Virus record (IMG/VR): IMGVR_UViG_2617271049_000012
DNA from: a virus
Taxonomy: Duplodnaviria > Heunggongvirae > Uroviricota > Caudoviricetes
Direction: 5' to 3' (one strand)
DNA length: 42,306 nucleotides
The notes under the pieces are model-generated. The model was not told the origin of the DNA and ran no database searches. It saw nothing but the letters and a program-made list of their open reading frames with translations. Positions 10,910-23,492 of this stretch are shown piece by piece (the first letter of the stretch is position 1; every line of letters starts with the position of its first letter). A program made the position numbers and the translations under genes.

Positions 10910-11119
10910 ATGATTTATACGCATGAAATGCTATGCGATGCCCGCCGGGCGTTACATGAACTGATGATCGGACGTGCTGTGGTTTCCGTCAGCAAGGACG
11001 GGCGTCAGGTTCAGTATTCGCGGGCGACAATTGGTGAACTGCGTCAGTATATTGAAGAGCTGGAAAGTGCGCTGGGTGTATCCGGACGGCGTCGTGGCCC
11101 GGCAGGAGTGGGGCTGTGA
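10910..11119 (+). CDS. W: Head-tail joining protein W
   Basis: About 69 aa; similar to lambda gpW (...AR.ALH.LM.G...V.V.KDGR.V.......L..YI.ELE.....RRRGPAG). Confidence 0.8.
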   Translation: MIYTHEMLCDARRALHELMIGRAVVSVSKDGRQVQYSRATIGELRQYIEELESALGVSGRRRGPAGVGL

Positions 11120-11928
11120 ACGGGGAACTGGTGGATATTCATGGGCAGCCTTTACGGCAAGGCATGGGATATTCTGGTGGTGGTTCCGGGTTCGGTGGGC
11201 AAATGGCAGAATGGCTGCCTGCACCGGAAAGTGCCGACGTGGCGCTCTTACCTTCCATTCATCTGGGTAACGCCCGCGCGGATGAGCTGGTCCGTAACAA
11301 CGGTATTGCATCGAATGCAGTGGAAATTCATAAGGATCATATTGTCGGGCACATGTTTCGTCTGAGTTACCGTCCCAACTGGCGCTGGCTGGGGATGTCG
11401 GAAGCAGATTCACATGCTTTTATTGAAGATGTTGAGGCGGCGTGGATGGAATACTGCGATCCGGTGTTTGGTACGATGGATGTGGAAGGGCGTCGTTCGT
11501 TTACCGAATTCATTCGTGAAGGGGTGGGGGTCCATACGTTTAACGGTGAAATTTTTGTCCAGCCCGTATGGGATGCGGAATCCACGTCATTATTCCGGAC
11601 GAAATTCAAAACCATCAGCCCGAAGCGTGTCAGTACACCCGGTTATGGTACCGGCGATCGTTTTATGCGTGCCGGGGTGGAAATAAACCGACACGGAAAA
11701 GCGCTGGCCTACCATGTTCAGGATGATGACTGGCCCGGCTACGGTGTCAGTAAATGGACACGAATTACGGCAACACTGCCTTCCGGACGACCGGGAATGA
11801 TCCATGTGTTTCAGCCACAGGAAGACGGGCAGACCCGCGGGGCCAACCAGTTTTATTCTGTAATGGAGCGTCTCAAGATGCTCGACACACTGCAGGCCAC
11901 GCAACTGCAGTCGGCGGTGGTTCGCGCC
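11116..11928 (+). CDS. B: Portal protein B, 5' portion (about 271 codons); gene interrupted by mobile element insertion
   Basis: Colinear with lambda gpB N-terminal half up to ...TQLQSAVVRA; after the junction the frame runs into 18 unrelated codons and a stop (ORF end 11982). Confidence 0.85.
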
Positions 11929-11930
11929 AT
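11924..11930. repeat. attL core (GCGCCAT), left copy of direct repeat
   Basis: Identical 7-mer at the right junction (22729..22735); flanking bases TTATG versus GTATG. Confidence 0.6.
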
Positions 11931-12059
11931 TTATGTCTATTATCTCCCCGTAGTTGTCGCCACCATTCATCAACTCCACTAAAACCCTTGATATGTCTGG
12001 AATGTCGTTTTTTGTATTTATGATGACCGTTCATTACCTTTCGTGTTTTTCGCGGTTTT

Positions 12060-12112
12060 GTGTATTGCAATGTGTATTGCAAGTTGGCGTTTGGATGGGG
12101 TGTGTATTGCAA
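12060..12112. repeat. Three direct copies of GTGTATTGCAA near attL, upstream of int (candidate arm-type or regulator binding sites)
   Basis: Copies at 12060-12070, 12072-12082 and 12102-12112; related copies near attR (22633..22654). Confidence 0.55.
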
Positions 12113-12131
12113 ATTGACGTGTAGGCTACAT

Positions 12132-13373
12132 ATGGCTATCGAGAATAAACTGACTGACAAACTTCTGAAAAGTCTTGCAGGTAAGCCGCAGGACAGACAA
12201 AAAATCATGGCTGATGGGCGGGGGCTATCTGTTCGTGTAAGCGTGGTTGGGGGAATTAGTTTCGTTTTTTACTATCGTATTGGCGGCAGGGATGCCCCTC
12301 CGGTATGGCTGACCCTTGGGCGTTATCCTGATATGTCTCTGGCAGCCGCCAGGAGATTACGCGACCAGTGCCGTGAATGGCTGGCGGAAAATCTGGATCC
12401 TCGCAGACAAATAAAACTTGTAGCTGAAAAAAACATGCGCCCTGTAACTGTAAGGGATGCGGTGCTTTACTGGTACGATAATCACGCCAGGACAGCCAGA
12501 AAGCAGCATGAGTATTTAATAAAAAGATTTGAAAAGCATATTTTTCCATATATCGGAGATATGGCTATAGAACAGTGCAAATTGCATACCTGGCTTACTG
12601 TATTTGACAGAATTAAAAAAAATGCTCCTGTTATGTCTGGTGCTATTTTTCTTGATATTAAACAGGCGTTACGTTTTTGCCGTATCAGGCAATACATTAG
12701 TTGCGATCCATTCGGTGATATTAACGTTAGTTATGTTGGACGTTCAGCAGGCATAAGGGATCGTGTTCTGAGTATTAATGAAGCCGCTGACGTATGGTCT
12801 TATGCCTATGGCAACAATTTACTTACCCTTTCATCAATACATAACCGAAGAATTATGGTTATCTGCCTGGTGTTTGGTTGCCGTCAGCAGGAGGCGCGGT
12901 TATCCACTTGGGAAGAATGGGATTTAAAAAACTGGATTTGGACAGTTCCAAAAGAGCACAGCAAGAACGGCGAGGTTATTGTAAGACCAGTCCCTGATGG
13001 AATAAAACAATGGGTTATTAATCTTTATGCGGAAACAAAGCACCGGGATTGTGTTATCGGTAGATCACTGAAGCGAGCGACAATAACAGGAGCAGCAAGC
13101 CGGATATGTAGGCGGCTAGGGCATGATGTAAATGGTCTGTGGTGCATACATGATTTCAGGCGTACATTTTCAACAATGCTTAACGATATGGGTGCCGATC
13201 CTTATATTGTAGAGCTTCTGCTTGGTCATAAAGTTAAAGGTGTGGCGGGTGTTTATAATAAAAGCAAGCATGTAAAGAAAAAACTTGAGGTTCTTAATAT
13301 GTGGGTTAATTACCTTAACACGATAGCCGGATTTAATAATAACGTTATTGAACTGAGTAAAGAGGTTGTTTGA
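12132..13373 (+). CDS. int: Tyrosine integrase, P4-type
   Basis: N-terminal P4-integrase-like region (LTDKLLKSL...KIMADGRGLSVRVSVVGGISFVFYYRIGGRD...WLTLGRYPDMSLAAARR) and C-terminal catalytic region (HDFRRTFSTMLNDMG...ELLLGHKV..VAGVYNKS); adjacent to attL. Confidence 0.9.
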   Translation: MAIENKLTDKLLKSLAGKPQDRQKIMADGRGLSVRVSVVGGISFVFYYRIGGRDAPPVWLTLGRYPDMSLAAARRLRDQCREWLAENLDPRRQIKLVAEKNMRPVTVRDAVLYWYDNHARTARKQHEYLIKRFEKHIFPYIGDMAIEQCKLHTWLTVFDRIKKNAPVMSGAIFLDIKQALRFCRIRQYISCDPFGDINVSYVGRSAGIRDRVLSINEAADVWSYAYGNNLLTLSSIHNRRIMVICLVFGCRQQEARLSTWEEWDLKNWIWTVPKEHSKNGEVIVRPVPDGIKQWVINLYAETKHRDCVIGRSLKRATITGAASRICRRLGHDVNGLWCIHDFRRTFSTMLNDMGADPYIVELLLGHKVKGVAGVYNKSKHVKKKLEVLNMWVNYLNTIAGFNNNVIELSKEVV

Positions 13374-13374
13374 T

Positions 13375-13632
13375 ATGTCAGTTTATTCACTTGTTGATGA
13401 AAAAGATTTTACTGCAATGCCGGATATTGATCGTGTCATTCGTGAAAAAGAATGCGTGGCACTTACTACGCTGGCAAATTCAACACGCTGGAAACTGGAA
13501 AAGACAGGTAAGTTCCCAAAACGTATTAAGATTGGTGAACGTGCCGCTGGCTATCGTCTCTCGGAGATTCAGGCGTGGATCCGTGGCGATTGGCACCCAG
13601 GATGGAAACCGGAAAAAACAAAACAGCAATAA
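13375..13632 (+). CDS. alpA: AlpA-family transcriptional regulator/excisionase
   Basis: Small HTH protein with AlpA-like motif (TGKFPKRIKIGERAAGYRLSEIQAWI); overlaps the int stop. Confidence 0.8.
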   Translation: MSVYSLVDEKDFTAMPDIDRVIREKECVALTTLANSTRWKLEKTGKFPKRIKIGERAAGYRLSEIQAWIRGDWHPGWKPEKTKQQ

Positions 13633-13648
13633 CCAGGAGATAAACACA

Positions 13649-13673
13649 GCCCCGCTCAATGCGGGGTTTTTTG
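13649..13673 (+). terminator. Rho-independent terminator
   Basis: CCCCGC-TCAAT-GCGGGG hairpin followed by TTTTTTG. Confidence 0.6.
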
Positions 13674-13691
13674 TATGTGAGGTAAAAAGCG

Positions 13692-14270
13692 ATGAATAAA
13701 AATATTGCCGTGACGGGCAAAGGTGACGCTCGTCTAGTGAAAAAATTCTGTGATATTCGTGATCTGGTCGTTCTGCGCTTTGATGGTGTGAACGTTCGCG
13801 TGGTGTATCTGAACGGCGATCCGTGGTTTGTTGCAGTTGACGTGTGCGCTGCGCTGGAAATTGTTGATCACAAGGTTGCGTTACGCCGTCTCGATGATGA
13901 TGAAAAGGGGGAGTGTTTAATACCCACCCTTGGCGGAAATCAAACAATGCGAACTGTATGCGAGTCAGGTTTCTACAAACTAATAGCCCGTAGCCGCAAA
14001 GCAACGACGCCTGGCACGTTCGCCCATCGTTTCAGTAACTGGGTATTCAGAAATGTGATACCGGGTATCAGAAAAACGGGGGCTTATGGTATCCCGTGGG
14101 GCGCATTACAGGATTTTTCCCGCCGTAAAGAGCAATATCAGATAAGTGCCAGCGAGAAGGGGAGGGAGCTACAGGCATGTAAGCGCAAAAAGCGTGAGCT
14201 GGAGGAAGAAGAAAAAAGGCTGATACGTGAATATCAGCCTGAGTTTTACTTTGGTGAGCGTATTCAGTAA
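13692..14270 (+). CDS. BRO-N domain protein (antirepressor-like)
   Basis: N-terminal Bro-N pattern (LRFDGVNVRVVYLNGDPWFVAVDVCAALEI...ESGFYKLIARSRKA); charged coiled-coil C-terminus. Confidence 0.75.
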   Translation: MNKNIAVTGKGDARLVKKFCDIRDLVVLRFDGVNVRVVYLNGDPWFVAVDVCAALEIVDHKVALRRLDDDEKGECLIPTLGGNQTMRTVCESGFYKLIARSRKATTPGTFAHRFSNWVFRNVIPGIRKTGAYGIPWGALQDFSRRKEQYQISASEKGRELQACKRKKRELEEEEKRLIREYQPEFYFGERIQ

Positions 14271-14552
14271 CCACTCGCAGTGCTGATTATACGGTACATC
14301 GTGTTAACCGGGAAGCTACCCACCAGCAAGGCAAAATCTTCTGCTAAAAAATGATATATGGTCAGCCGTCCGGAAAGCATGAAATTTTACAAAAATGGAA
14401 AATGAAGATTTTTATTGTGCTGGTGGGTAAAAACAAAAAGCGCCCCGTTGCCGGAGCGCCTTTGTGAACAATTAACCTACTGCGCAAAAAATGAATCTGA
14501 GCAGTGGGATTATATCAACCGTGTGACGAAGCGCCACAATTGCCGGATAACA

Positions 14553-14583
14553 GGCAAAACAAAGGCCACCCGCTACGGTGGCC
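14553..14583 (-). terminator. Rho-independent terminator for the minus-strand small-gene pair
   Basis: GGCCACC-CGCTAC-GGTGGCC hairpin with an A run on the + strand upstream (a U run on the minus-strand transcript). Confidence 0.5.
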
Positions 14584-14686
14584 CTTCAACACAAGCTACA
14601 CGTTATCCCCAACGCATGAGCATCACCAACAATGCCACATTTGCGGCTAGTGGGCAATGTGATCAGTGTGCTGGCTTGCTGGTGGG

Positions 14687-14884
14687 CTATTCCTGCTCTT
14701 TAGCATCGCCATGCTGCGATGTTTTCCAGGTATGCGATCCCATTTTTGTGCGCCTGTACTCTTTAAGGAACTTCTCAAGGACAAACGCACATGGTGCGAA
14801 TCTTTCCTGTTCTTGTTCGCTTACCGCGTTTTTGCGTTGTTTTTTCCTGGATGAGGATAATTTCTTTAATGATTTGTCAGTCAT
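14687..14884 (-). CDS. Small basic protein, paralog of the adjacent ribbon-helix-helix-like repressor
   Basis: 65-aa ORF between the RHH gene and a minus-strand terminator; shares ...SEQEQ...F.....FVLE... and the C-terminal AKEQE with 14942..15139. Confidence 0.4.
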   Translation of the reverse strand: MTDKSLKKLSSSRKKQRKNAVSEQEQERFAPCAFVLEKFLKEYRRTKMGSHTWKTSQHGDAKEQE

Positions 14885-14941
14885 CGTAGATACCTGTAAC
14901 CCAGTGCGCCACAGTTCACCGCACCACAGCGCTGGTGATGG

Positions 14942-15139
14942 TTACTCCTGCTCTTTGGCCTTCCGGCGCTGTTCATATTTTAATTTGCGTCCACAGGCAT
15001 CTAAGACCCATGCGGAAAAATTAGCACTAGGATTAGTTAATTTTTCTTGTTCAACACTGGCATCAATCCCATCTATAAGCTCGTGCGGGAATCGAATGTT
15101 TTTCTTTGCTGATTTGTTGTTTGTGTTTCCGCTAGACAT
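14942..15139 (-). CDS. Putative ribbon-helix-helix (Arc/Mnt-like) repressor
   Basis: 65 aa; N-terminal beta-strand-like KNIRFPHELIDGID; GAGGTG RBS 7 nt upstream of ATG; palindromic operators immediately upstream. Confidence 0.5.
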   Translation of the reverse strand: MSSGNTNNKSAKKNIRFPHELIDGIDASVEQEKLTNPSANFSAWVLDACGRKLKYEQRRKAKEQE

Positions 15140-15165
15140 TGGTACACCTCATTTAAATGGATTTG

Positions 15166-15246
15166 ATGGGCGCACACAATACAGCAAAAAAAGTGAGAAG
15201 TTAAGTATTGACATGTGCGCACACATAATTTTAATCTGTGCGCACA
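15166..15246. promoter_or_regulatory. Divergent control region with three palindromic operators TGTGCGCACA (one imperfect) overlapping a TTGACA -35 element
   Basis: Sites at 15168-15178 (GGGCGCACACA, imperfect), 15214-15223 and 15237-15246 (perfect 10-bp palindromes); TTGACA at 15208-15213. Confidence 0.65.
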
Positions 15247-15344
15247 GTTTGGGTTGCATTGCTCAAATTAAGCAACGCCCCGCAGTGCTCGCAACACATG
15301 CAGGGCGTCTAACCACCAACGATAGCAATAGTATCGAGGTAGCT

Positions 15345-15548
15345 ATGTTAAATCATACCACACACCCGCAAGGGCGGGACTCGCACAACCTGAATAAATA
15401 CATCTGGCGTTTTATCGCCCTGAGCACGGCACAGCCGCGCGTGATTACCATTGAGGCCACCAGCGAACAGGAAGCACGCCAGCAATCCCCGGCTGGCTGC
15501 GTGATGGTATTCGCCGCTCGTATTCGTCAGGAGGTGCGCCATGATTAA
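15345..15548 (+). CDS. Small satellite protein, possibly Icd-like (weak recollection only)
   Basis: First + strand ORF downstream of the operator region (MLNHTTHPQ...YIWRFIALSTAQPRVITIEATSEQEARQQ...); lies inside a spurious 377-aa track ORF. Confidence 0.4.
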   Translation: MLNHTTHPQGRDSHNLNKYIWRFIALSTAQPRVITIEATSEQEARQQSPAGCVMVFAARIRQEVRHD

Positions 15549-15753
15549 CCTGTCACTTACCGACCTTAACCGCATTCAGTTTCGTGAGAAATTTACCGGG
15601 CAGCTACTGGTCAATGTGGATAAAGGTCGCGTGGTGTGTAATTACCACCTGCCAGATGAAGCCATTGTCGCAACAAGGGAATCATTACAGGAACTCGCAG
15701 AACGTGCCGGAATGATTAACGCGAATATTCAGGGGGTGAGACATGTGCAATAA
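15541..15753 (+). CDS. Hypothetical small protein (70 aa)
   Basis: ATG overlapping upstream stop (ATGA); part of a tightly packed + strand operon. Confidence 0.45.
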   Translation: MINLSLTDLNRIQFREKFTGQLLVNVDKGRVVCNYHLPDEAIVATRESLQELAERAGMINANIQGVRHVQ

Positions 15754-15982
15754 CCCACGTCCGGACGCAGCCGCCGAAGCCATCAAAACGCTGATGCACG
15801 CGCTGATTGATATTTCATGCACGGCAGCAATCGCAGAAAAATACATTACCAGAGAGACGGAATATACAGGGGAAATAATCCCCCATTCGCTGGCCTACGC
15901 ACAGCTTACCGCTGATATGGCACTGAATGAGGCCAGGGCTATCCTGATTGCTGATTGTGAAAATGGGGGGGGTTATGCGTGA
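15743..15982 (+). CDS. Hypothetical small protein (79 aa)
   Basis: Overlapping-start operon member; no domain recognised. Confidence 0.4.
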   Translation: MCNNPRPDAAAEAIKTLMHALIDISCTAAIAEKYITRETEYTGEIIPHSLAYAQLTADMALNEARAILIADCENGGGYA

Positions 15983-16208
15983 TGATCGTTTTAATGCCCT
16001 GAAACAGGAATTTGATGGCGCACCGGAAGATACAGATATTGCGCTGTTATGTGTTGCTGACATGGTAAAAGCTGCATGTTTTTTACTGGAAACCGCCGAA
16101 CATTCAGGAACGGGTAGCGATATTCTCAATATTGCGTCGGACTATGCGGAATATGTGGCAGAGACGCGTTACAGAAGTAAATTCCCGGAGGGGGTGAGCC
16201 ATGCATGA
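15948..16208 (+). CDS. Hypothetical small acidic protein (start ambiguous: 15948, 15963 or 15975)
   Basis: Operon member; GGGGG RBS-like tract before ATG 15975. Confidence 0.4.
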   Translation: MLIVKMGGVMRDDRFNALKQEFDGAPEDTDIALLCVADMVKAACFLLETAEHSGTGSDILNIASDYAEYVAETRYRSKFPEGVSHA

Positions 16209-16434
16209 TATTTACAATGACACAGTAGACCATGCATACAGCGCACTTGCTTACAGTGAAAACATGCTTGAAATATTGCGCTTATGGCTTGAAACGCTTG
16301 GCGATAATGAAAGAGATAAACGCAACAGCAATATTGCAACAGCATTAATAACGCTTCTTGAGCCTGTAATAAATGAACTGCAAGAAATAGACATCTTGCA
16401 CGACAGATATAAAGAGCCACACACCGGAGAATAA
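16201..16434 (+). CDS. Hypothetical small protein (77 aa)
   Basis: ATG overlapping previous stop; operon member. Confidence 0.4.
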   Translation: MHDIYNDTVDHAYSALAYSENMLEILRLWLETLGDNERDKRNSNIATALITLLEPVINELQEIDILHDRYKEPHTGE

Positions 16435-16439
16435 AAACC

Positions 16440-16739
16440 ATGAAAAAGAAAAATTCTGGCTTTACTGCCAGCGGCCCCGCTCGGCCTGAAATCCGCCCCG
16501 GCGATATTTTCCGGGATAACTACGGCGGCACGGTAACGATTAAAAGTATTGCCGGACGGTGCGTTACTTACCGCCGTGATGGGTACAGCTACGACTGCGT
16601 GATGCCTGTTTATCAGTTCCGGCGTGATTTTTCTCTGGAACAGGCCGCACCACACAAACAGCCCACCAGCAACGCAAAGGCACGGGCGAACATTCAGAAA
16701 ATGAAAAACATGATTAACGCATTCAGGGGTAAAAAATGA
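16440..16739 (+). CDS. Hypothetical small basic protein (99 aa)
   Basis: Operon member directly upstream of rep; stop overlaps the rep start. Confidence 0.4.
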   Translation: MKKKNSGFTASGPARPEIRPGDIFRDNYGGTVTIKSIAGRCVTYRRDGYSYDCVMPVYQFRRDFSLEQAAPHKQPTSNAKARANIQKMKNMINAFRGKK

Positions 16740-18151
16740 AACTGGCACCGAACTTAAAAAAACAGCCGCACGACAAAATGACCGAAGTCATTATTTTTGC
16801 GGGTAGTGATGCCTGGGCGCACGCGAAACAATGGCAGGAGCAGGACGGGCGACTTGCTGGCGACAATGTTCCGCCTGTATGGCTTGGAGACAACCAGCTT
16901 GACGAACTGGCAGACCTGAAAATCATCGATGATGGTCGCTATTGTGTCCGGCTGTACAAGGCAGGCCACATCAAGCCGTCAAATATTAATGCCATCGGGC
17001 AAAAGCTGGCGGCGGCAGGTGTACGGGATGCGAATTATTACCCTGAGGGAATGCACAGCCAGAAGCTGGAGAACTGGCACGACTACCTGCAACGGATCCG
17101 CGAACAGACAGAGCGCGGGGAAATACTTACTGACGAGCAATACAGCCAGCGAAAAACCACGCTACCAATGAGCATTGGATCTGCAGGGTACGACACACAG
17201 CTTGATTATGTCGTTAAGGGCGTGATTCCGGCTAATTCATTGTGCAGCACATACGGCTCGAGCGGTTCCTATAAATCGTTCCTCGCGTGTTCCTGGGCGT
17301 GTCATGTTGCCACGGGTCGCCACTGGGGAGGCCGCAGGGTGGCGCATGGTTCGGTGATGTATGTCGTCGGTGAAGGGGGGATAGGTGTCCCCCGTCGTAT
17401 CAAGGCATGGGAAATCGTTAATGATGAACGGGTGGAAAATCTGTACCTGGTAAACCGCCCGATTTTTCCGGCAGTCCCGCTTGATGTCGATGAAATGGTC
17501 ATCGCTTCCCGCCAGGTTGAACGGGAAACGGGTAAACCGGTACGCATGATTATTCTGGATACGCTGGCGCGTTGCTTTGGCGGTAATGATGAAAATGACG
17601 CGCGGGATATGGGGGCGTTTATCCGTGGATGTGACGAACTGAAACGACGCACAGGGGCCACGGTGCTGGTGGTTCACCATTCCGGCAAGGATGAAACAAA
17701 GGGGGCGCGTGGTTCCAGTGCATTTCGTGCATCTCTGGACGCTGAATACCGTATTCGCCGTGAAGGTGCGGACAGTGAAGCCCTGGTTATCTCCTGCACC
17801 AAAATGAAGGACGCGGAGGAACTGAAAGAGGCTGCATATGATTTACGCGTGGTGGAGCTTTTTACCGACACTGACGGGGAGTTAATCACGTCGCTGGTGG
17901 TTGTGGATAAGCCGCGCCCACCTGTTGAACTGGAGCGCATCGAGGAGGCCGGGAACAAGACGGAGAATCATGCCGCGCTATGGCAGTGCATCAGAACGCG
18001 AACAGCACACGGGGAGGCGTGCACTATCGCCCTTCTCCGCGACGATATGAAAAAGCTGGGGTATGAAATGAAAAACTTCCGGCGCTGGCTGTACAAGCTG
18101 GAAAGCGACGGCGTAATCGCTATTGACGGTGATTATGTGCGCCCACTGTAA
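16736..18151 (+). CDS. Replication initiator/helicase (RepA-like RecA-fold ATPase with N-terminal extension)
   Basis: Walker A-like YGSSGSYKSF and Walker B-like RMIILDTLARCFGG; iteron array immediately downstream. Confidence 0.7.
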   Translation: MKLAPNLKKQPHDKMTEVIIFAGSDAWAHAKQWQEQDGRLAGDNVPPVWLGDNQLDELADLKIIDDGRYCVRLYKAGHIKPSNINAIGQKLAAAGVRDANYYPEGMHSQKLENWHDYLQRIREQTERGEILTDEQYSQRKTTLPMSIGSAGYDTQLDYVVKGVIPANSLCSTYGSSGSYKSFLACSWACHVATGRHWGGRRVAHGSVMYVVGEGGIGVPRRIKAWEIVNDERVENLYLVNRPIFPAVPLDVDEMVIASRQVERETGKPVRMIILDTLARCFGGNDENDARDMGAFIRGCDELKRRTGATVLVVHHSGKDETKGARGSSAFRASLDAEYRIRREGADSEALVISCTKMKDAEELKEAAYDLRVVELFTDTDGELITSLVVVDKPRPPVELERIEEAGNKTENHAALWQCIRTRTAHGEACTIALLRDDMKKLGYEMKNFRRWLYKLESDGVIAIDGDYVRPL

Positions 18152-18353
18152 AAAGTGAGGAGCAAAAGTGAGGATAGCGGGTAATTTAACAAAAAATCAG
18201 CGCTACTCCTCACTTTCTCACCTGTATATAGGTCAAAAAGTGAGGAATAAAAAATACATTGCAAAACAACGCATTACAGAAGAAAAAAAACAGGTGAGGA
18301 GCAGGACGGGAATAACAAAAAGTGAGGAATAAAAGTGAGTAGAGGTGAGGAAT
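18150..18353. repeat. Iteron array (about 8 copies of AAAGTGAGGA in both orientations): putative satellite replication origin
   Basis: Copies at about 18153, 18165, 18207 (inverted), 18236, 18291, 18318, 18331 and 18343, within AT-rich DNA 3' of rep. Confidence 0.7.
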
Positions 18354-18603
18354 GACCAGAAAAACCAGAGATAAGACAGCACCAAAATATCGCGCATTAG
18401 ACATGACAGAGCACGCCTTAAAGGTGGCAATCAGAACAATAGACCGCCATGCCGGAGAAGGATACGCAAAAGCACATCCAGAACTGATACGCGCATTCAT
18501 GACCACAGCGGCGGCAAACTTTGCCACGCTGACAGAACGGGAGATTGCCGAAGCGGAACAGGTGACAACCATCAACGTTAAAAACGGAGAGCATACAGCA
18601 TGA
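18352..18603 (+). CDS. Hypothetical protein (83 aa)
   Basis: ATG right after the iterons; stop overlaps the ssb start. Confidence 0.4.
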   Translation: MTRKTRDKTAPKYRALDMTEHALKVAIRTIDRHAGEGYAKAHPELIRAFMTTAAANFATLTEREIAEAEQVTTINVKNGEHTA

Positions 18604-19022
18604 CAGCACAGATAGCGGCTTACGGGCGGCTGGTGGCTGACCCGCAGTTAAAGACCACCAGCAAAGGGACACAAATGGCGATGGCGAGTATGGCGGTTCC
18701 CCTTCCGTGCAGCCAGGCAGATGACGGAACGGCGACGATGTGGTTATCCGTCCTGGCGTTTGGCAGGCAGGCCGACGCACTGGCAAAGCACCACAAAGGC
18801 GAACTGGTGAGCGTGGCGGGTAACATGCAGGTAAGCCAGTGGACAGGCCAGAACGGCGAAACGCGGCAGGGCTGGCAGGTTATCGCAGACAGCGTAATCA
18901 GTGCCAGAACGGCGCGACCGGGCGGCAAAAAAGGCCAGCAGGGCCAGGCTACTGACGCACTGAACAGGGCAAAACAACAGGCGGGAAATGATGATCCGTA
19001 CGGGGATAACATACCGTTTTAA
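18600..19022 (+). CDS. ssb: Single-stranded DNA-binding protein (SSB-like)
   Basis: OB-fold-like core, Gly/Gln-rich linker and acidic C-terminal tip (DDPYGDNIPF) resembling the SSB DDDIPF tail. Confidence 0.7.
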   Translation: MTAQIAAYGRLVADPQLKTTSKGTQMAMASMAVPLPCSQADDGTATMWLSVLAFGRQADALAKHHKGELVSVAGNMQVSQWTGQNGETRQGWQVIADSVISARTARPGGKKGQQGQATDALNRAKQQAGNDDPYGDNIPF

Positions 19023-19035
19023 GCAACGAGTGACA

Positions 19036-19063
19036 GAAGCCGGGATTTTTCCCGGCTTTTTTG
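19036..19063 (+). terminator. Rho-independent terminator after ssb
   Basis: AGCCGGG-ATTTTT-CCCGGCT followed by TTTTTTG; a second hairpin (19076-19100) with an upstream A run could terminate minus-strand transcription. Confidence 0.6.
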
Positions 19064-19196
19064 TGCGCAAAAAAAATCCCCCGGGATGAGGTTCCGGGGG
19101 ATTTCACGCCGCTAACGTGATTAGCGCTGAATGACTCTGTGGTACAAGGAGTAAAACCACGGCATCATGATTTCATGATTTGCAACAACAGTCAAT

Positions 19197-19219
19197 ATCA
19201 TTGCAAAAAATGCAATGAT
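19197..19219. promoter_or_regulatory. Perfect palindrome ATCATTGCA-AAAAA-TGCAATGAT upstream of the satellite capsid operon (candidate activator/operator site)
   Basis: 9-bp inverted arms around a 5-bp A spacer; shares the ATTGCAA core with the repeats at both island ends; preceded by direct repeats CATGATTT. Confidence 0.5.
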
Positions 19220-19280
19220 GATTAAAATCATGAATGACTTTTCGTTATGTTTATTTTTTAGTCAAAGAGGAATCTCATTT

Positions 19281-19487
19281 ATGGGAACACAGAAGCCGGG
19301 CGGTGTATCCGTGTACATCAGCCCCGATATTATCGCCGCACTTAATGCGCGCTTTGAGGAGAACGCAGAGGCAGGAAAAAAAATCGGCCTTGATCCGTTG
19401 TGCCTGGTGAAGCCGTCAGTCGGCTGGATGGTACGCAGCCATTTACGCGCTGCGCTTGGTATGAATCAGCCTCATGGGGGTGAGTAA
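19281..19487 (+). CDS. Hypothetical small protein preceding the capsid gene
   Basis: ATG with AAGAGGAA RBS; stop overlaps the capsid ATG (TAATG). Confidence 0.4.
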   Translation: MGTQKPGGVSVYISPDIIAALNARFEENAEAGKKIGLDPLCLVKPSVGWMVRSHLRAALGMNQPHGGE

Positions 19488-20542
19488 TGACAGCGCCGCA
19501 ACTGGTAAGCACACCAACGCTACTGAAAAATATCGGGCGCGAAGATGTGCCGGAATTTAAATTTAATCCACTCTTTACTACGTTGTTCTTTCCGAACGTC
19601 GCTACTTTCAGCACCAGAGATATTGCACTTGATACGCTGGATATTGAAAACGTGGTCATGAGTCCGTTTTGTTCTCCAATGTCAGGCAGCCAGGTTATGC
19701 GTGACAAAGGTTTCACAACGAACACGTTCACGCCGGGTTATATGAAGCCCAAACACGTTATTGATCCCACCAAAACAATCATGCGCATGCCTGGAGAACA
19801 GATCGGCAATGGTCAGTCTTCCCCGGCACTACGCCGCGTAAAAATGGTTCACGACAGCCAGAAAAAACAGCTTGCTGCCATCAAAGCGCGTGTTGAATGG
19901 CTGGCGGTCAATGCCATCACAACAGGCCGTAACGTTATTGAGGGCGAAGGCATTGAGCGTTATGAAATTGACTGGGGATTACCCGAAACCAATCATATTA
20001 CGCAGGCTGGCGGGAAAGAATGGTCAAAACAGGATGCCGAAACGTTTGATCCGATAAGCGACATTGAGGCTTACGCTGATTTTTCCGAAGGTACGGTAAA
20101 TATTATCGTCATAGGTGGCGAAGCCTGGCGTATTTTGCGCTCGTTCCGTCGATTCCGCGAACTAATGGACACGCGTCGCGGTTCAAACTCGTCACTTGAA
20201 CTTGCGCTAAAAGATTTGGGCGGCGTTGTCAGCTTCAAGGGGTATCTCGGTGATGTGGCGATCGTGGTTTATTCCGGTCGTTATGACGACGAAAACGGGC
20301 AGCAGCAATATTTCCTGAAACAAAACATGATGGTTTTCGGCAATACCGAAAATAAAGGCCTTGTTGCTTATGGTGCCATCATGGATCAGGACGCGGCACG
20401 CGAGGGATTTTCTGAGGGGATGTACTACCCGAAAAATTATATCGTACCGGGCGATCCGGCGATTGAATACGTGCAGACGCACAGCGCCCCGCAGCCAGTA
20501 CCCGTGGATATTGGTCGCTTTGTTACCGTCGAAGTGAAATAA
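19487..20542 (+). CDS. Major capsid protein, lambda gpE-like (satellite-encoded paralog)
   Basis: 351 aa colinear with lambda gpE (F.F.PLF...FF.....PGY.KPKH...NITQAGG.EWSK.D..TFDP..D.EAY......NII...WR.LRSF..F.E..DTRRGSNS.LE.A.KDLG..VS.KGY.GDVAIVVYSGRY...). Diverged from the host-phage E at 25544..26572. Confidence 0.9.
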   Translation: MTAPQLVSTPTLLKNIGREDVPEFKFNPLFTTLFFPNVATFSTRDIALDTLDIENVVMSPFCSPMSGSQVMRDKGFTTNTFTPGYMKPKHVIDPTKTIMRMPGEQIGNGQSSPALRRVKMVHDSQKKQLAAIKARVEWLAVNAITTGRNVIEGEGIERYEIDWGLPETNHITQAGGKEWSKQDAETFDPISDIEAYADFSEGTVNIIVIGGEAWRILRSFRRFRELMDTRRGSNSSLELALKDLGGVVSFKGYLGDVAIVVYSGRYDDENGQQQYFLKQNMMVFGNTENKGLVAYGAIMDQDAAREGFSEGMYYPKNYIVPGDPAIEYVQTHSAPQPVPVDIGRFVTVEVK

Positions 20543-20552
20543 AGGGGATCGT

Positions 20553-20882
20553 ATGCCAACACCTTACACGCAATTCCTTTCCGGCACGCAGGAACTGGTC
20601 AGCACGCTGGCCTGTTTTGCCAGTGCCGGAGAAATTAAAGCGAGAACTCCGCTGATGCAGAACGGCGCGGGCCTGATGGTTGAGTGGGACGGTACACCCG
20701 GTAAGGCGGTGTATCTGACCATATCGGACATTAACACGGCCACAAAAAACCGCGCACAGGTTTATAAGTGCGGGGTTTTTAATATCGATGAAATTAACTG
20801 GCCTGATACAGCGGACACGTTCGAGAAAAAAGTGTCGGCTTTTGTTGGTTCCGGTATTTCCGTGCAGCCTTTAGGGCAATAA
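20553..20882 (+). CDS. Head decoration protein, lambda gpD-like (satellite-encoded)
   Basis: 109 aa; gpD-like motifs (TPLM......WDGT.G.AV.......YK.G.F....WPD.A.....AF.G..IS) directly after the capsid gene. Confidence 0.65.
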   Translation: MPTPYTQFLSGTQELVSTLACFASAGEIKARTPLMQNGAGLMVEWDGTPGKAVYLTISDINTATKNRAQVYKCGVFNIDEINWPDTADTFEKKVSAFVGSGISVQPLGQ

Positions 20883-20896
20883 TTTTGTGGTGATTT

Positions 20897-21322
20897 ATGA
20901 CTGAGAAAGCAAATTCAACCAGAGCATTGATCATGGCACTGCCTGAGGCGCAGAAATACCCGACGCTTGCGGAAAATCTCGCAAATAATGGCGCATCACT
21001 GACAGAAGCCCGAACGGTGCTTACTGCAAAGGCTGAGAGTGATAAACAGCGCATAGAGGGTATCAAGGCGTTACCGCTGGCATCAAAATACCCTGAGTTC
21101 ACCAGTAAGCTGATTGAGTGTGGTTCTGAAGTAATGACAGTAACCTATGCACAAACGTTACTGGCTGCCGTGGATGCCCAGGCAATGATGCAGGAAAAGA
21201 AAACGGCTTTTCTGTTTGAAGCGTACATGGAAAAGCACAGCCCGAAATGTGTTGGGCCAGCAGCCGGTGATGGCAACGCCGGACTGACCGAAGATGAAAA
21301 GCTGTTGCTGTCTGTTAAGTAA
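20897..21322 (+). CDS. Putative scaffold protein (Nu3-like) with ALPEA/ALPLA repeat motifs
   Basis: Two repeats (ALPEAQKYPTLAENLANNGASLTEARTVL / ALPLASKYPEFTSKLIECGSEVMTVTYAQTLLAAVD) resembling the ALPEAKGREQLA..LAEQPGMTVEQAKTLLAAAP repeats in the host-phage C/Nu3. Confidence 0.5.
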   Translation: MTEKANSTRALIMALPEAQKYPTLAENLANNGASLTEARTVLTAKAESDKQRIEGIKALPLASKYPEFTSKLIECGSEVMTVTYAQTLLAAVDAQAMMQEKKTAFLFEAYMEKHSPKCVGPAAGDGNAGLTEDEKLLLSVK

Positions 21323-21336
21323 CTGAAATGAACGTT

Positions 21337-21368
21337 CGCGAGGCTGGCAAGGTCTCGCGATTTTTTTT
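21337..21368 (+). terminator. Rho-independent terminator
   Basis: TCGCGAG-loop-CTCGCGA followed by TTTTTTTT. Confidence 0.6.
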
Positions 21369-21394
21369 GTATCCGGAACGGTGGTGATCGCCCC

Positions 21395-21480
21395 AATTTT
21401 CACGGGTCCTTTCCAGAATCAGAAACACCGCGGGGCGGCAGACGCGCAAAAACGCGCTATTTATGAAAATTTTTCAGGAA
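21395..21480 (+). other. Satellite cos site (cosQ/cosN-like) mimicking the host-phage cos
   Basis: CACGGGTCCTTTCC...CGCGGGGCGGCAGACGCGC...CGCTATTTATGAAAATTTTTCAGG parallels the host cos at 8250..8330; directly upstream of the satellite terS. Confidence 0.75.
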
Positions 21481-21620
21481 AAAGCATGTCGGTACTTCTC
21501 GCGCATAACTGTTTGTTTTTATTAAAATCAACCACCAGGAACATACGACATCATAAAGCCCAAAAATCCTGTTTTTTTGGCGTTTCATGTCGGAACTGGT
21601 TTTTGATAAGGAATTGATAG

Positions 21621-22223
21621 ATGAATGTTAATAAAAATAATCTTGCGAAGATTTTTGGCGTCGATCCGCGCACGATTGAACGATGGCAAACGCAAGGGCT
21701 TCCCCATGTATCTGGTGGGGGTAAAGGTGTGGAGGTGACTTTCGACTCTGCGCAGGTGATCGAATGGTATGCACAGAGGGAGAAGGACATCGAAAACGAA
21801 AAACTCCGCAGGGAACTTGATGATTTACGTGCCGATGGTGAATCAGATTTACAGCCAGGCACAACAGAATACGAACGCTATCGCCTCACCAAAGCACAGG
21901 CGGACGGGCAGGAGCTAAAGAACACCAAGGAGACAGGGGAAGTTATCGATACTGAGTTCGTGCTCTATGCGCTTCGTGGGCTGGCGAGCCAGATTTCTTC
22001 GATCATGGATAGTTTACCGCTCACAATGCAAAGGCAGTTCCCCGCGATGACTCAGACAATGATCGAGGGACTGAGGAAGGAAACAGCACGGGCCTGTAAT
22101 GCGTGCGCTAAAACTGCCGATAACCTGCCCCGCATTCTGGAAGACTACCTGATGGAAACAACCGGAAACGTGCCGGAGAAATTACGGCAACAGAAAGGTG
22201 AGTGGCAGCCGCGCAATTATTGA
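21621..22223 (+). CDS. Terminase small subunit, Nu1-like (satellite-encoded paralog)
   Basis: N-terminal region near-colinear with the host Nu1 ([79 protein letters not shown]); C-terminal part diverged and longer (200 aa). Confidence 0.85.
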   Translation: MNVNKNNLAKIFGVDPRTIERWQTQGLPHVSGGGKGVEVTFDSAQVIEWYAQREKDIENEKLRRELDDLRADGESDLQPGTTEYERYRLTKAQADGQELKNTKETGEVIDTEFVLYALRGLASQISSIMDSLPLTMQRQFPAMTQTMIEGLRKETARACNACAKTADNLPRILEDYLMETTGNVPEKLRQQKGEWQPRNY

Positions 22224-22233
22224 ACAAAACTGA

Positions 22234-22296
22234 GAAAGGATCTGATAACGTCATTTTTGGCCCAAAATGACCACTGTCAGATCCTTTCTTTTTTTG
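22234..22296 (+). terminator. Long-stem terminator after the satellite terS
   Basis: AGAAAGGATCTGA...TCAGATCCTTTCT inverted repeat followed by TTTTTTT. Confidence 0.55.
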
Positions 22297-22470
22297 ATGA
22301 TTTTACCATTAAACAATGAGTTACAGAGAAGAAGAACGGATCTGACTTTTCCCGAAAAATTTTCATAAACAGTTAAGAATTGCGCGTATGGCTACCCCCG
22401 GTGTTTTATTTTCCAGGAAGGACCCGCCACAATTACGGCATTGTTTTCCATCACCACGGAGGCCATGACA

Positions 22471-22656
22471 ATGACCGAAGCCGAAATGCTCAAAATGATT
22501 CGCCGCGTTACCGGATCCAGCAAGACAGCAGGCAAACAGGAGACCACGCAGCCGGACAGCGTGATAGCCGAAAATTACGCGCGTGTGGTGGCTGAGGTGA
22601 TGCGCCGTGACGGTATTCACAAGCAACAATTTGCGTATTGCAATGTGTATTGCTAA
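22471..22656 (+). CDS. Hypothetical small protein at the right end of the island
   Basis: GGAGG RBS 9 nt upstream of ATG 22471; 3' end runs through the GTATTGCAA repeats near attR. Confidence 0.3.
   Translation: MTEAEMLKMIRRVTGSSKTAGKQETTQPDSVIAENYARVVAEVMRRDGIHKQQFAYCNVYC
22633..22654. repeat. Two direct copies of (G/T)CGTATTGCAA / GTGTATTGC near attR
   Basis: Same motif and orientation as the three copies near attL. Confidence 0.55.
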
Positions 22657-22728
22657 CCCTCCAAACGGGTGAAATATGCAAACATAACATATTGTTTTGT
22701 CTTTTTATTTTTTCGTATCTTTTCATAA

Positions 22729-22735
22729 GCGCCAT
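22729..22735. repeat. attR core (GCGCCAT), right copy of direct repeat
   Basis: Identical to 11924..11930; its last base pair is the first base of the portal codon ATG (M) that resumes the reading frame. Confidence 0.6.
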
Positions 22736-23492
22736 GTATGCCGCCACGATTGAATCCACACTGGATTCGGAAAAAGCGTTTGAATATATCGCCGGGGTGG
22801 GAGATGGAGGTAAAAATCCCCTGAACACCATCATGAAAGGCTACGCGCGTTATTACGCCACCAATACGGTAAAACTGGGAGGGGTCCGTATTCCGCATCT
22901 TTACCCGGGAGATTCACTGAATCTGCAGACAGCCCAGAATGCGGATAATGGTTTTTCTGAACTGGAAAAGGCGCTGTTACGTTACATTGCTGCCGGACTG
23001 GGTGTGTCGTATGAGCAGCTTTCCCGGGATTATTCACAGGTCAGTTATTCCAGTGCCAGGGCATCCGCCAATGAGTCGTGGCGGTATTTTATGGGAAAAC
23101 GAAAATTTGTGGCCAGTCGCCTGGCGTCACAGATGTTTGCCTGCTGGCTGGAGGAAGCCCTTATTCGTGGTGTGATCCGTCCGCCGAAATCCCGTTTCTC
23201 ATTCTGGGAGGCCCGTTCCGGGTGGTGCCGTGCCGAGTGGATTGGTGCCGGTCGTATGGCGATTGATGGCCTTAAGGAAGTGCAGGAAGCGGTGATGCGC
23301 ATTGAAGGCGGCCTGAGTACATACGAGAAAGAGCTGGCCCTGATGGGGGATGACTATCAGGAGATTTTCCGCCAGCAGCTACGGGAAACTCAGGAGCGAC
23401 AGGCTGCCGGTCTTCCGCGTCCGGTCTGGATAAAGGACGCGTTTCAACAGCAGATCCGACAGACAACGGGAGAAAAAGGCGATGCGCTGTAA
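22734..23492 (+). CDS. B: Portal protein B, 3' portion (about 252 codons)
   Basis: MYAATIES...DSLNLQTAQ..DNG.S..E..LLRYIAAGLGVSYEQLSR.Y.Q.SYS.ARASANESW.YFMG.RKFVAS...WIG.GRMAIDGLKEVQEAVM.IE.GLSTYEKE colinear with the lambda gpB C-terminal half; joins in frame to 11928. Confidence 0.85.
   Translation: MYAATIESTLDSEKAFEYIAGVGDGGKNPLNTIMKGYARYYATNTVKLGGVRIPHLYPGDSLNLQTAQNADNGFSELEKALLRYIAAGLGVSYEQLSRDYSQVSYSSARASANESWRYFMGKRKFVASRLASQMFACWLEEALIRGVIRPPKSRFSFWEARSGWCRAEWIGAGRMAIDGLKEVQEAVMRIEGGLSTYEKELALMGDDYQEIFRQQLRETQERQAAGLPRPVWIKDAFQQQIRQTTGEKGDAL

Follow-up and report, generated by a model that had tools for sequence, protein, structure and literature searches.

The viral record IMGVR_UViG_2617271049_000012 (Caudoviricetes), a stretch of 42,306 nucleotides referred to here as the window, carries a lambdoid prophage that is interrupted by a 10.6-kb satellite island. 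Within the island, a minus-strand gene for a 65-residue DUF3950 (YlcI/YnfO) protein diverges from a plus-strand operon of early and replication genes, and the segment between the two harbors three short palindromes. Comparison of related loci makes it very likely that these palindromes are operators of the adjacent DUF3950 protein, a predicted ribbon-helix-helix (RHH) repressor, and that together they form a switch for the satellite operon, to which a predicted antisense RNA would add a further layer.

The loci used for comparison were drawn from species-representative genomes, IMG/VR, and metagenomes, which yielded 121 loci encoding relatives of the repressor. After de-duplication, 78 distinct loci have a confidently placed triple of sites, 52 of them with standard spacing. 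The sources span Escherichia, Klebsiella, Serratia, Rahnella, Pectobacterium, Erwinia, Proteus, Xenorhabdus, and Enterobacter, as well as metagenomes. The control region of the window and the genes on either side of it comprise the following features:

15236-15247: O1, predicted operator distal to the repressor gene; the palindrome TGTGCGCACA at 15237-15246 widens here to the perfect 12-bp palindrome CTGTGCGCACAG (from sequence; position kept in relatives)
15214-15223: O2, predicted central operator, the perfect 10-bp palindrome TGTGCGCACA (from sequence; adjoined by TTGAC in 52/52 standard-spacing loci)
15167-15176: O3, predicted operator proximal to the repressor gene, TGGGCGCACA, with one mismatch (from sequence)
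15208-15237, plus strand: P_R, predicted rightward promoter, with the -35 element TTGACA at 15208-15213, an 18-nt spacer, and the -10 element TAATCT at 15232-15237 (from sequence and conservation)
15176-15204, minus strand: P_L, predicted leftward promoter, with the -35 element TTAACT at 15204-15199, a 17-nt spacer, and the -10 element TATTGT at 15181-15176 (from sequence and conservation)
14942-15139, minus strand: DUF3950 (YlcI/YnfO) gene, encoding the predicted RHH repressor of 65 amino acids (aa), with the ribosome-binding site GAGGTG at 15150-15145
15345-19022, plus strand: early/replication operon, running from the Icd-like gene through SSB and predicted to be regulated

Palindromic sites and predicted divergent promoters

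The exact 10-bp palindrome TGTGCGCACA has just two copies in the 42.3-kb window, at 15214-15223 and 15237-15246, against a mean of 0.10 copies in dinucleotide-preserving shuffles of the window, none of which (0/100) contained two or more. An earlier sequence-only reading of this DNA had reported these two palindromes as perfect, which is confirmed. The imperfect third copy that it described also exists, but its coordinates shift from 15168-15178 to 15167-15176. Both gene starts named in that reading hold: the minus-strand open reading frame (ORF) at 14942-15139 begins with an ATG at 15139, with GAGGTG 5 nt upstream, and the plus-strand operon begins with an ATG at 15345.

The predicted promoters are arranged back to back, with their -35 hexamers 3 bp apart on opposite strands. 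O2 fills the start of the P_R spacer and touches its -35 element, such that TTGACA immediately adjoins the central palindrome, as had been noted earlier. O1 overlaps the 3′ end of the predicted P_R -10 element and the expected transcription start. O3 overlaps the 3′ end of the predicted P_L -10 element and is therefore proposed to be the site of autoregulation.

This arrangement recurs in the 52 standard-spacing loci. The hexamer adjoining the central site reads TTGAC(A/G/C/T) in 52/52, and the P_R -10-like hexamer 18 bases downstream retains T1 in 47/52, A2 in 50/52, and T6 in 52/52, with its last three bases lying within the distal site. The P_L -10 pattern TAtnGT, in which T1, A2, and T6 are each present in 52/52, overlaps the proximal site in a mirror arrangement, and a TT-rich -35 element sits 17 bases upstream of it. 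On the strength of this conservation, P_R and P_L are predicted to be divergent promoters.

The sites could instead be replication-origin or partition iterons that serve an island initiator and are not transcriptional operators. This is very improbable for several reasons. The palindromes are positioned exactly at the -35 and -10 elements that make up two conserved promoters, and a separate array of four AAAAAGTGAGGA copies (18150-18331) follows the helicase gene, which is where the origins of such islands are placed (PMC10111431). The same operators accompany a RepA-type helicase in the window and a DUF927 primase in a related locus (L002). Finally, copies outside the control region occur at chance level: when one mismatch is allowed, the window contains five TGTGCGCACA-like copies versus 2.37 expected, of which three fall within the 81-bp stretch of the control region, and only those at 18136 and 19062 lie elsewhere. 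Transcriptional operators are the preferred reading of the sites.

Covariation of the sites with the DUF3950 protein

Related islands do carry the palindromes, and the three-site layout is kept across ~120 related loci, although the sequence of the sites varies. The start-to-start spacing is nearly constant, with 23 bp between the distal and central sites and 46-47 bp between the central and proximal sites in most of the 78 loci, and in most of them the proximal site ends ~25 bp from the repressor start codon. The mismatch in O3 is identical throughout the E. coli-type loci, whereas the proximal site is perfect in the Rahnella, Klebsiella, and Erwinia relatives. One operator class has a fourth site. 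Two IMG/VR contigs, L029 and L030, differ upstream of position 1501 by exactly one 23-bp operator unit: in L029, the unit is duplicated, giving four sites, while in L030, a deletion fuses the distal and central sites, giving two.

The site sequences fall into at least nine classes, with all three copies altered together. Over 12 nt, the mean number of mismatches is 1.8 within a locus versus 4.14 between loci with differing protein N-termini. When the loci are sorted by residues 11-14 of the protein, the central cores are as follows:

AKKN: TGTGCGCACA (27/27)
xYKG and TFKG: (T/C)GTTTAAACA-type, with TTTAAA cores for xYKG
ATKK: TGCGGCCACA (4/4)
AKKH, DKKA, and SRVG: TGTGCACCCA-like
ATKG (with R4): TGTTAGGGCA / TGTTGGGGCA
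TTKG: TGCACATACA / TGTATAAACA
QLKN: TGTGTAGACA or TGTGTATACA
AQKK: GTGTACCCCCAC (read by eye)

A second repressor subfamily found in E. coli islands (..ARVPH..ES.GQF..) has the same layout, with the cores GGTGTTGAACACC, GGTGTCAGCCAC, GTGTGTTTCA, and GGTGTGGCCCAC. The class GGTGTGGCCCAC is that of the model Gram-negative island EcCICFT073 (L128; NC_004431.1, 1380242-1381052), which harbors the same cassette, i.e., a 59-aa YlcI/YnfO protein, ORF2 (the second gene of the leftward operon), the antisense RNA, and the Icd-like gene. In EcCICFT073, these genes are listed under late-added RefSeq locus tags.

The palindromes might be bound by a different factor, such as AlpA, Bro-N, ORF2, the Icd-like protein, the replicase, a helper regulator, or a host protein, with DUF3950 being a mere neighbor. 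AlpA has been experimentally shown to regulate EcCICFT073 (PMC6092414), which speaks for a binder of this kind. The covariation makes it improbable, however. AlpA and Bro-N are 81% and 96% identical between the window and locus L001, yet the repressor and the operators of L001 differ. L002 has the operators of the window and a fully identical (100%) repressor, but its AlpA is unrelated, its Bro-N is 56% identical, and the DUF927 primase replaces RepA, which argues against AlpA and the replicase. The Icd-like protein is 98% identical in CFT073 despite its different operators, and ORF2 (14687-14884) is 94% identical in L124, where the operators also differ. Because ORF2 is kept with other operators in L124 and is absent from other-genus loci that carry identical operators, it is not the specificity determinant. 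Host-factor binding does not fit either, because the site sequence varies between loci of one host species as well as across genera.

At the level of sequence comparison, the operators track only the DUF3950 protein and not AlpA, Bro-N, the Icd-like protein, ORF2, or the replicase, and host factors and other island proteins are therefore excluded as determinants of specificity. On the basis of this covariation, ORF2, AlpA, Bro-N, the Icd-like protein, and the replicase were rejected as binders of the sites.

A further explanation holds that the repeats act as nucleic acid, with O2 and O1 forming a hairpin or cruciform that functions as a terminator, attenuator, or recombination site. O2 and O1 are indeed mutually complementary (13 nt, 92%, with a 7-nt loop), and the L029 and L030 variants, which are longer or shorter by exactly one 23-bp unit, show that the repeats have recombined. 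Several classes, however, have asymmetric sites in direct orientation (e.g., L003, in which GGTGTGTAAACAAA occurs twice the same way), so that hairpin potential is not conserved, whereas position and spacing are. A rightward RNA would also lack O2, because the predicted P_R start lies inside O1, and no T-run follows the repeats on either strand. The likelihood of such a function is therefore slight, and recognition by the DUF3950 protein is the favored interpretation.

Pfam places the product of 14942-15139 in DUF3950 (E 1.6e-6), and NCBIfam places it in YlcI_YnfO_N (E 3.5e-16). Its predicted model has a strand-helix-helix fold of ~45 residues, as is characteristic of RHH proteins, and CopG-family proteins rank among the top structural matches. 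The strand K12-K13-N14-I15-R16-F17-P18 displays the alternation of core-facing hydrophobic and DNA-facing polar residues that is typical of an RHH ribbon. The strand-helix-helix model and the residue pattern of the strand support the earlier description of this gene as RHH-like, and the RHH fold is accepted for the DUF3950 protein on this modeled basis, while membership in the Arc/Mnt family is not claimed. The palindromic nature of the sites is consistent with binding of a symmetric dimer.

The sequence variability of the repressor peaks at positions 5, 6, 11, 12, and 14 (entropy >1.8 bits; 2.19 at position 12 and 1.86 at position 14). In contrast, I15-R16-F17-P18 (IRFP) is invariant, and positions 7, 9, 10, 13, and 41-45 are strongly conserved. 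In an RHH strand, positions 12, 14, and 16 point outward, and the variable ones among them, 12 and 14, co-vary with the operator core. Within the 65 residues of the protein, there is neither a sensor domain nor a visible partner-binding domain.

Part of the stretch 14900-15400 is matched in 1594 of 5426 complete E. coli genomes (~29%), at up to six places each, and most of these matches cover only the antisense-RNA and Icd-like part. In many of the E. coli matches listed, the middle of the query, where the operators lie along with much of the repressor gene, is unaligned between conserved flanks. Such a pattern is typical of an exchangeable immunity cassette.

Predicted antisense RNA and the proposed switch

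A second regulatory element is predicted on the minus strand, over the start of the Icd-like gene:

15265-15345 (ends approximate), minus strand: predicted cis-antisense small RNA of ~80 nt (from covariation, fold energy, and a covariance model)
15352-15360, minus strand: predicted promoter of the antisense RNA, with the extended -10 element TGGTATGAT, located within the first codons of the Icd-like gene (from sequence)

In the predicted RNA, a 5′ hairpin (complement of 15320-15336) is followed by a terminator hairpin (complement of 15275-15308) and a U-rich tail. Its sequence is a full complement of the leader, the Shine-Dalgarno sequence GAGG (15336-15339), and the ATG of the Icd-like gene. 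In an alignment of 41 sequences, standard pairing is retained in 96.4% of cells when read on the minus strand versus 83.0% when read on the opposite one, and G-U pairs account for 118 cells. Compensatory changes occur in 13 of the 21 pairs, and the observed covariation is matched by none of 500 shuffles; sliding the alignment as a control lowers pairing to 35-48%. The T-rich tail follows the hairpins on the minus strand alone, and the RNA of the window folds with -38.7 kcal/mol (z = -5.8). A covariance model built from the alignment scores 81.8 bits at its single match in the window, 15256-15356 on the minus strand. In 39 of 42 other sources, EcCICFT073 included, it likewise has one match, which is next to the repressor gene and invariably on the same strand as that gene. 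The loop of the 5′ hairpin contains the anti-Shine-Dalgarno sequence CCUC in most relatives, and a TAnnnT hexamer is found at the place equivalent to that of the predicted promoter in related loci.

No Rfam family, including C4 and isrK, was detected in 15230-15400 (E up to 10) or in 11500-23000 (E up to 1), and none was detected at gathering score in 15 related loci. The best resemblance is to the Plasmid_R1162 antisense RNA (15273-15346, plus strand; 18.5 bits versus a gathering score of 55; E 0.34), on the strand that does not encode the predicted RNA, and is probably due to chance. The conserved antisense RNA, which the sequence-only reading did not contain, appears to be a second layer of the same switch.

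In the proposed mechanism, each palindrome of 10-14 bp would receive a repressor dimer, whose two N-terminal strands form a ribbon that enters the major groove, where the outward residues 12, 14, and 16, along with the N-terminal arm, would read the operator bases. Occupation of O2 and O1 would block P_R and keep the early/replication operon, from the Icd-like gene to the RepA helicase and SSB, switched off. O3, a weaker site on the -10 element and start of the repressor's own promoter P_L, would afford negative autoregulation. The antisense RNA, started within the Icd-like gene, would mask the ribosome site and provide a post-transcriptional lock on leaky or read-through transcripts. Transcripts reading through from upstream are possible because the consensus scan shows no convincing plus-strand terminator in 14270-15345. 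Islands exchange their operators jointly with the end of the protein that is predicted to read DNA, giving rise to many mutually distinct specificities, like phage immunity types. The fixed geometry, the conserved promoter elements, and the covariation with the N-terminal arm and strand of the protein all lend support to the autoregulated repressor switch that had been suggested from the sequence. This support does not extend to the direct de-repression by the host phage that the same reading had proposed.

Repression may be lifted by terminator-resistant read-through from upstream, which would run antisense across the repressor gene and enter the operon without P_R. The source of such transcription would be the helper late operon in the case of an embedded island, or AlpA-dependent transcription in the case of free-standing islands. 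Read-through is favored because the repressor has no sensor domain, AlpA is sufficient in EcCICFT073 (PMC6092414), and helper late transcription is expected to proceed into the island (PMC10111431). That read-through, by bypassing P_R and opposing P_L, lifts repression is suggested with low confidence.

A broader hypothesis, which is tentative and somewhat doubtful, is that Gram-negative phage-inducible chromosomal islands (PICIs) have their missing master immunity switch in this cassette of a DUF3950 repressor, three operators on two promoters, and a cis-antisense RNA. The cassette would silence the toxic Icd-like gene and the replication operon and would exist in at least a dozen exchangeable specificities, so that islands residing together avoid cross-repression. 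Silencing would be overcome by AlpA-dependent or helper late read-through, antisense across the repressor gene, and not by an anti-repressor.

Several observations weigh against the repressor switch. A simple consensus promoter scan called neither P_R nor P_L, both of which have -10 elements that match poorly; P_R was missed because its -10 element fits the consensus at just 3/6 positions. The prediction of both promoters relies on cross-locus conservation. The link to RHH proteins is weak in sequence, since the other Pfam match of the window protein, which is to the RHH part of HicB_lk_antitox and covers the strand and first helix, has an E value of only 0.22, and of 72 distant relatives no more than three hit CopG_antitoxin (best E 4.6e-4) and a single one hits RHH_5. 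Neither profile searches of solved structures by sequence nor Foldseek gave a match for the DUF3950 protein. An hhalign comparison with Arc is not significant (probability 3%), although it yields the expected register, with AKKNIRFPHELIDGID opposite Arc PQFNLRWPREVLDLVR and positions 12, 14, and R16 opposite Arc Q9, N11, and R13. The structure model is a monomer of moderate confidence, whereas the ribbon forms only in a dimer. In EcCICFT073, AlpA expression is sufficient for induction and no repressor has been invoked (PMC6092414). Lastly, because less than 100 bp separate the operators from where the repressor gene has its 5′ end, part of the covariation between protein and operator could be co-inheritance. 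The concerted change of three sites and the focus of the covariation on predicted DNA-facing residues make mere co-inheritance less probable.

Known systems and the surrounding island

The immI region of phage P22 encodes the repressors Mnt and Arc, and harbors the promoters P_ant and P_mnt as well as the sar antisense RNA. Judged from its sequence, the locus in the window resembles immI in having a small, predicted RHH repressor divergent from the operon it would control and short symmetric operators over back-to-back promoters. Likewise, a few residues of the N-terminal β-strand would set specificity, and one gene of the controlled operon has its ribosome site opposite a short cis-antisense RNA, here predicted. 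However, there are several differences between the two. The window has one repressor and three operators spaced at 23 and 47 bp, while P22 has two repressors with O_mnt and O_arc. The genes controlled are Icd-like and replication genes in place of an antirepressor, and the element is a satellite and not a phage. The DUF3950 protein has no Pfam Arc match and no significant sequence match to Arc or Mnt. Given this lack of homology and of an antirepressor target, the cassette would be a functional analogue of immI and not a member.

In pMV158/pLS1, the RHH repressor CopG and the antisense RNA II control copy number, and CopG is encoded by the first gene of the operon that it represses. Common features, predicted for the window, are the control of a replication operon at two levels, a ~45-65-aa RHH repressor acting on a pseudo-symmetric promoter element, and a small antisense RNA complementary to a translation-initiation region. 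In contrast to pMV158, the repressor gene in the window is divergent, the RNA would target the first gene of the operon, Icd-like, and not the initiator, and the element is integrated and helper-dependent. The likeness to immI and to pMV158 is one of function and not of demonstrated homology.

The immunity RNAs C4 of P1 and CI of P4 are processed from a sense transcript and act on nearby sites. The cassette shares with these systems a predicted RNA-based control beside an Icd-like gene in satellites and phages. Unlike C4 and isrK, the RNA described here has no Rfam match, and it is predicted to be transcribed as a true cis-antisense RNA from a promoter of its own to a terminator of its own. 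RNAs of the P4 CI and P1 C4 type (Rfam C4, isrK) have been reported in some Gram-negative islands (PMC10111431).

The master repressors of Gram-positive PICIs, Stl and Rpr, are lifted by forming a complex with a specific helper-phage protein (PMC6092414). As in the window, their genes are divergent from the excision/replication operon and occupy an equivalent map position, from which the repressor would keep the island silent; this position is all that is shared. Stl and Rpr are larger than the 65-residue DUF3950 protein, which is not known to respond to a helper-encoded inducer, and in Gram-negative islands AlpA is the activator that has been shown. The difference from Gram-positive islands has been called “a mystery” (PMC6092414).

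In a published survey, the minus-strand genes are given as hypothetical and all non-hypothetical genes as unidirectional (PMC10111431); neither “operator” nor “DUF3950” occurs in its text. Later genomic surveys list the repressor gene only as hypothetical or “prophage-associated” (PMC10111431, PMC13612085). No description of this repressor-operator switch was found in the literature searched, which comprised papers outside paywalls. An RHH repressor-operator switch with an antisense RNA is of an already known kind; its setting is one in which the literature searched recognizes no repressor.

The cassette is a candidate repressor switch for Gram-negative satellites, including the model island EcCICFT073. 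A concrete function would be assigned to the domain of unknown function DUF3950, with predictions that connect residues to bases: if the proposed mode of reading is true, changing residues 11-14 from AKKN to TYKG would shift repression from TGTGCGCACA to GTGTTTAAACAC. The candidate switch would also add an unlisted antisense RNA and a natural set of orthogonal repressor-operator pairs. If it is confirmed, models of satellite silence and induction need a repressor layer beneath AlpA.

The island is flanked by a 24-nt attachment (att) repeat (12057-12080 and 22630-22653, 96% identical) and splits a lambda-type portal gene, such that Pfam profile positions 2-242 are found at 11116-11982 and positions 235-353 at 22638-23492. 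It is inserted in the portal gene of the lambdoid prophage in the same orientation, and one relative is annotated with an incomplete portal gene. The tyrosine integrase, the att repeats, and the co-oriented insertion in a lambdoid late gene are the hallmarks of helper-embedded PICIs. The published site group B:Phage_portal_2:241 has the same portal split (at ~profile position 240), att repeats, and four zones (int/AlpA, Bro, replication, and captured late genes), and the island is a helper-embedded PICI of this group (PMC10111431). The integrase, the att repeats, and the split portal of the lambdoid prophage also bear out the earlier designation of the element as a satellite.

The gene order of the island is tyrosine integrase, AlpA, and Bro-N, followed by two minus-strand small genes, the plus-strand run, and the captured late genes. 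The Icd-like gene, DUF4222, the RepA-type helicase, and SSB agree with the assignment of the plus-strand operon to early and replication functions in the sequence-only reading. The remaining features of the leftward and rightward operons are:

14687-14884, minus strand: ORF2, second gene of the leftward operon, 65 aa, without a family match and hypothetical in the annotation of relatives
14586-14561 and 14463-14436, minus strand: two intrinsic-terminator-like hairpins that would end the leftward operon (from the consensus scan)
15345-15548, plus strand: Icd-like gene, followed by four small ORFs
16440-16739, plus strand: DUF4222
16736-18151, plus strand: RepA/AAA_25 helicase
About 18150-18363: iterons AAAAAGTGAGGA(A/G), four or more copies, between the helicase gene and the next (83-aa) ORF
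18600-19022, plus strand: SSB

The AAAAAGTGAGGA iterons are probably the replication origin of the island. An exact copy of the O3 sequence, TGTGCGCCCA, is present at 18136-18145, at the 3′ end of the helicase gene and 5 bp ahead of the iterons.

The captured late genes (19487-22223) comprise an E-type capsid, a D-type decoration, and a Nu1-type small terminase gene, without portal, protease, or large terminase. EcCICFT073 also carries capsid and decoration genes.

The two minus-strand genes of the leftward operon share a 20-nt 3′ end (14685-14704 and 14940-14959, 85% identical), and ..AKEQE is the C-terminal sequence of both proteins. This hints at a partial duplication, or at a recombination joint bordering the exchangeable cassette.

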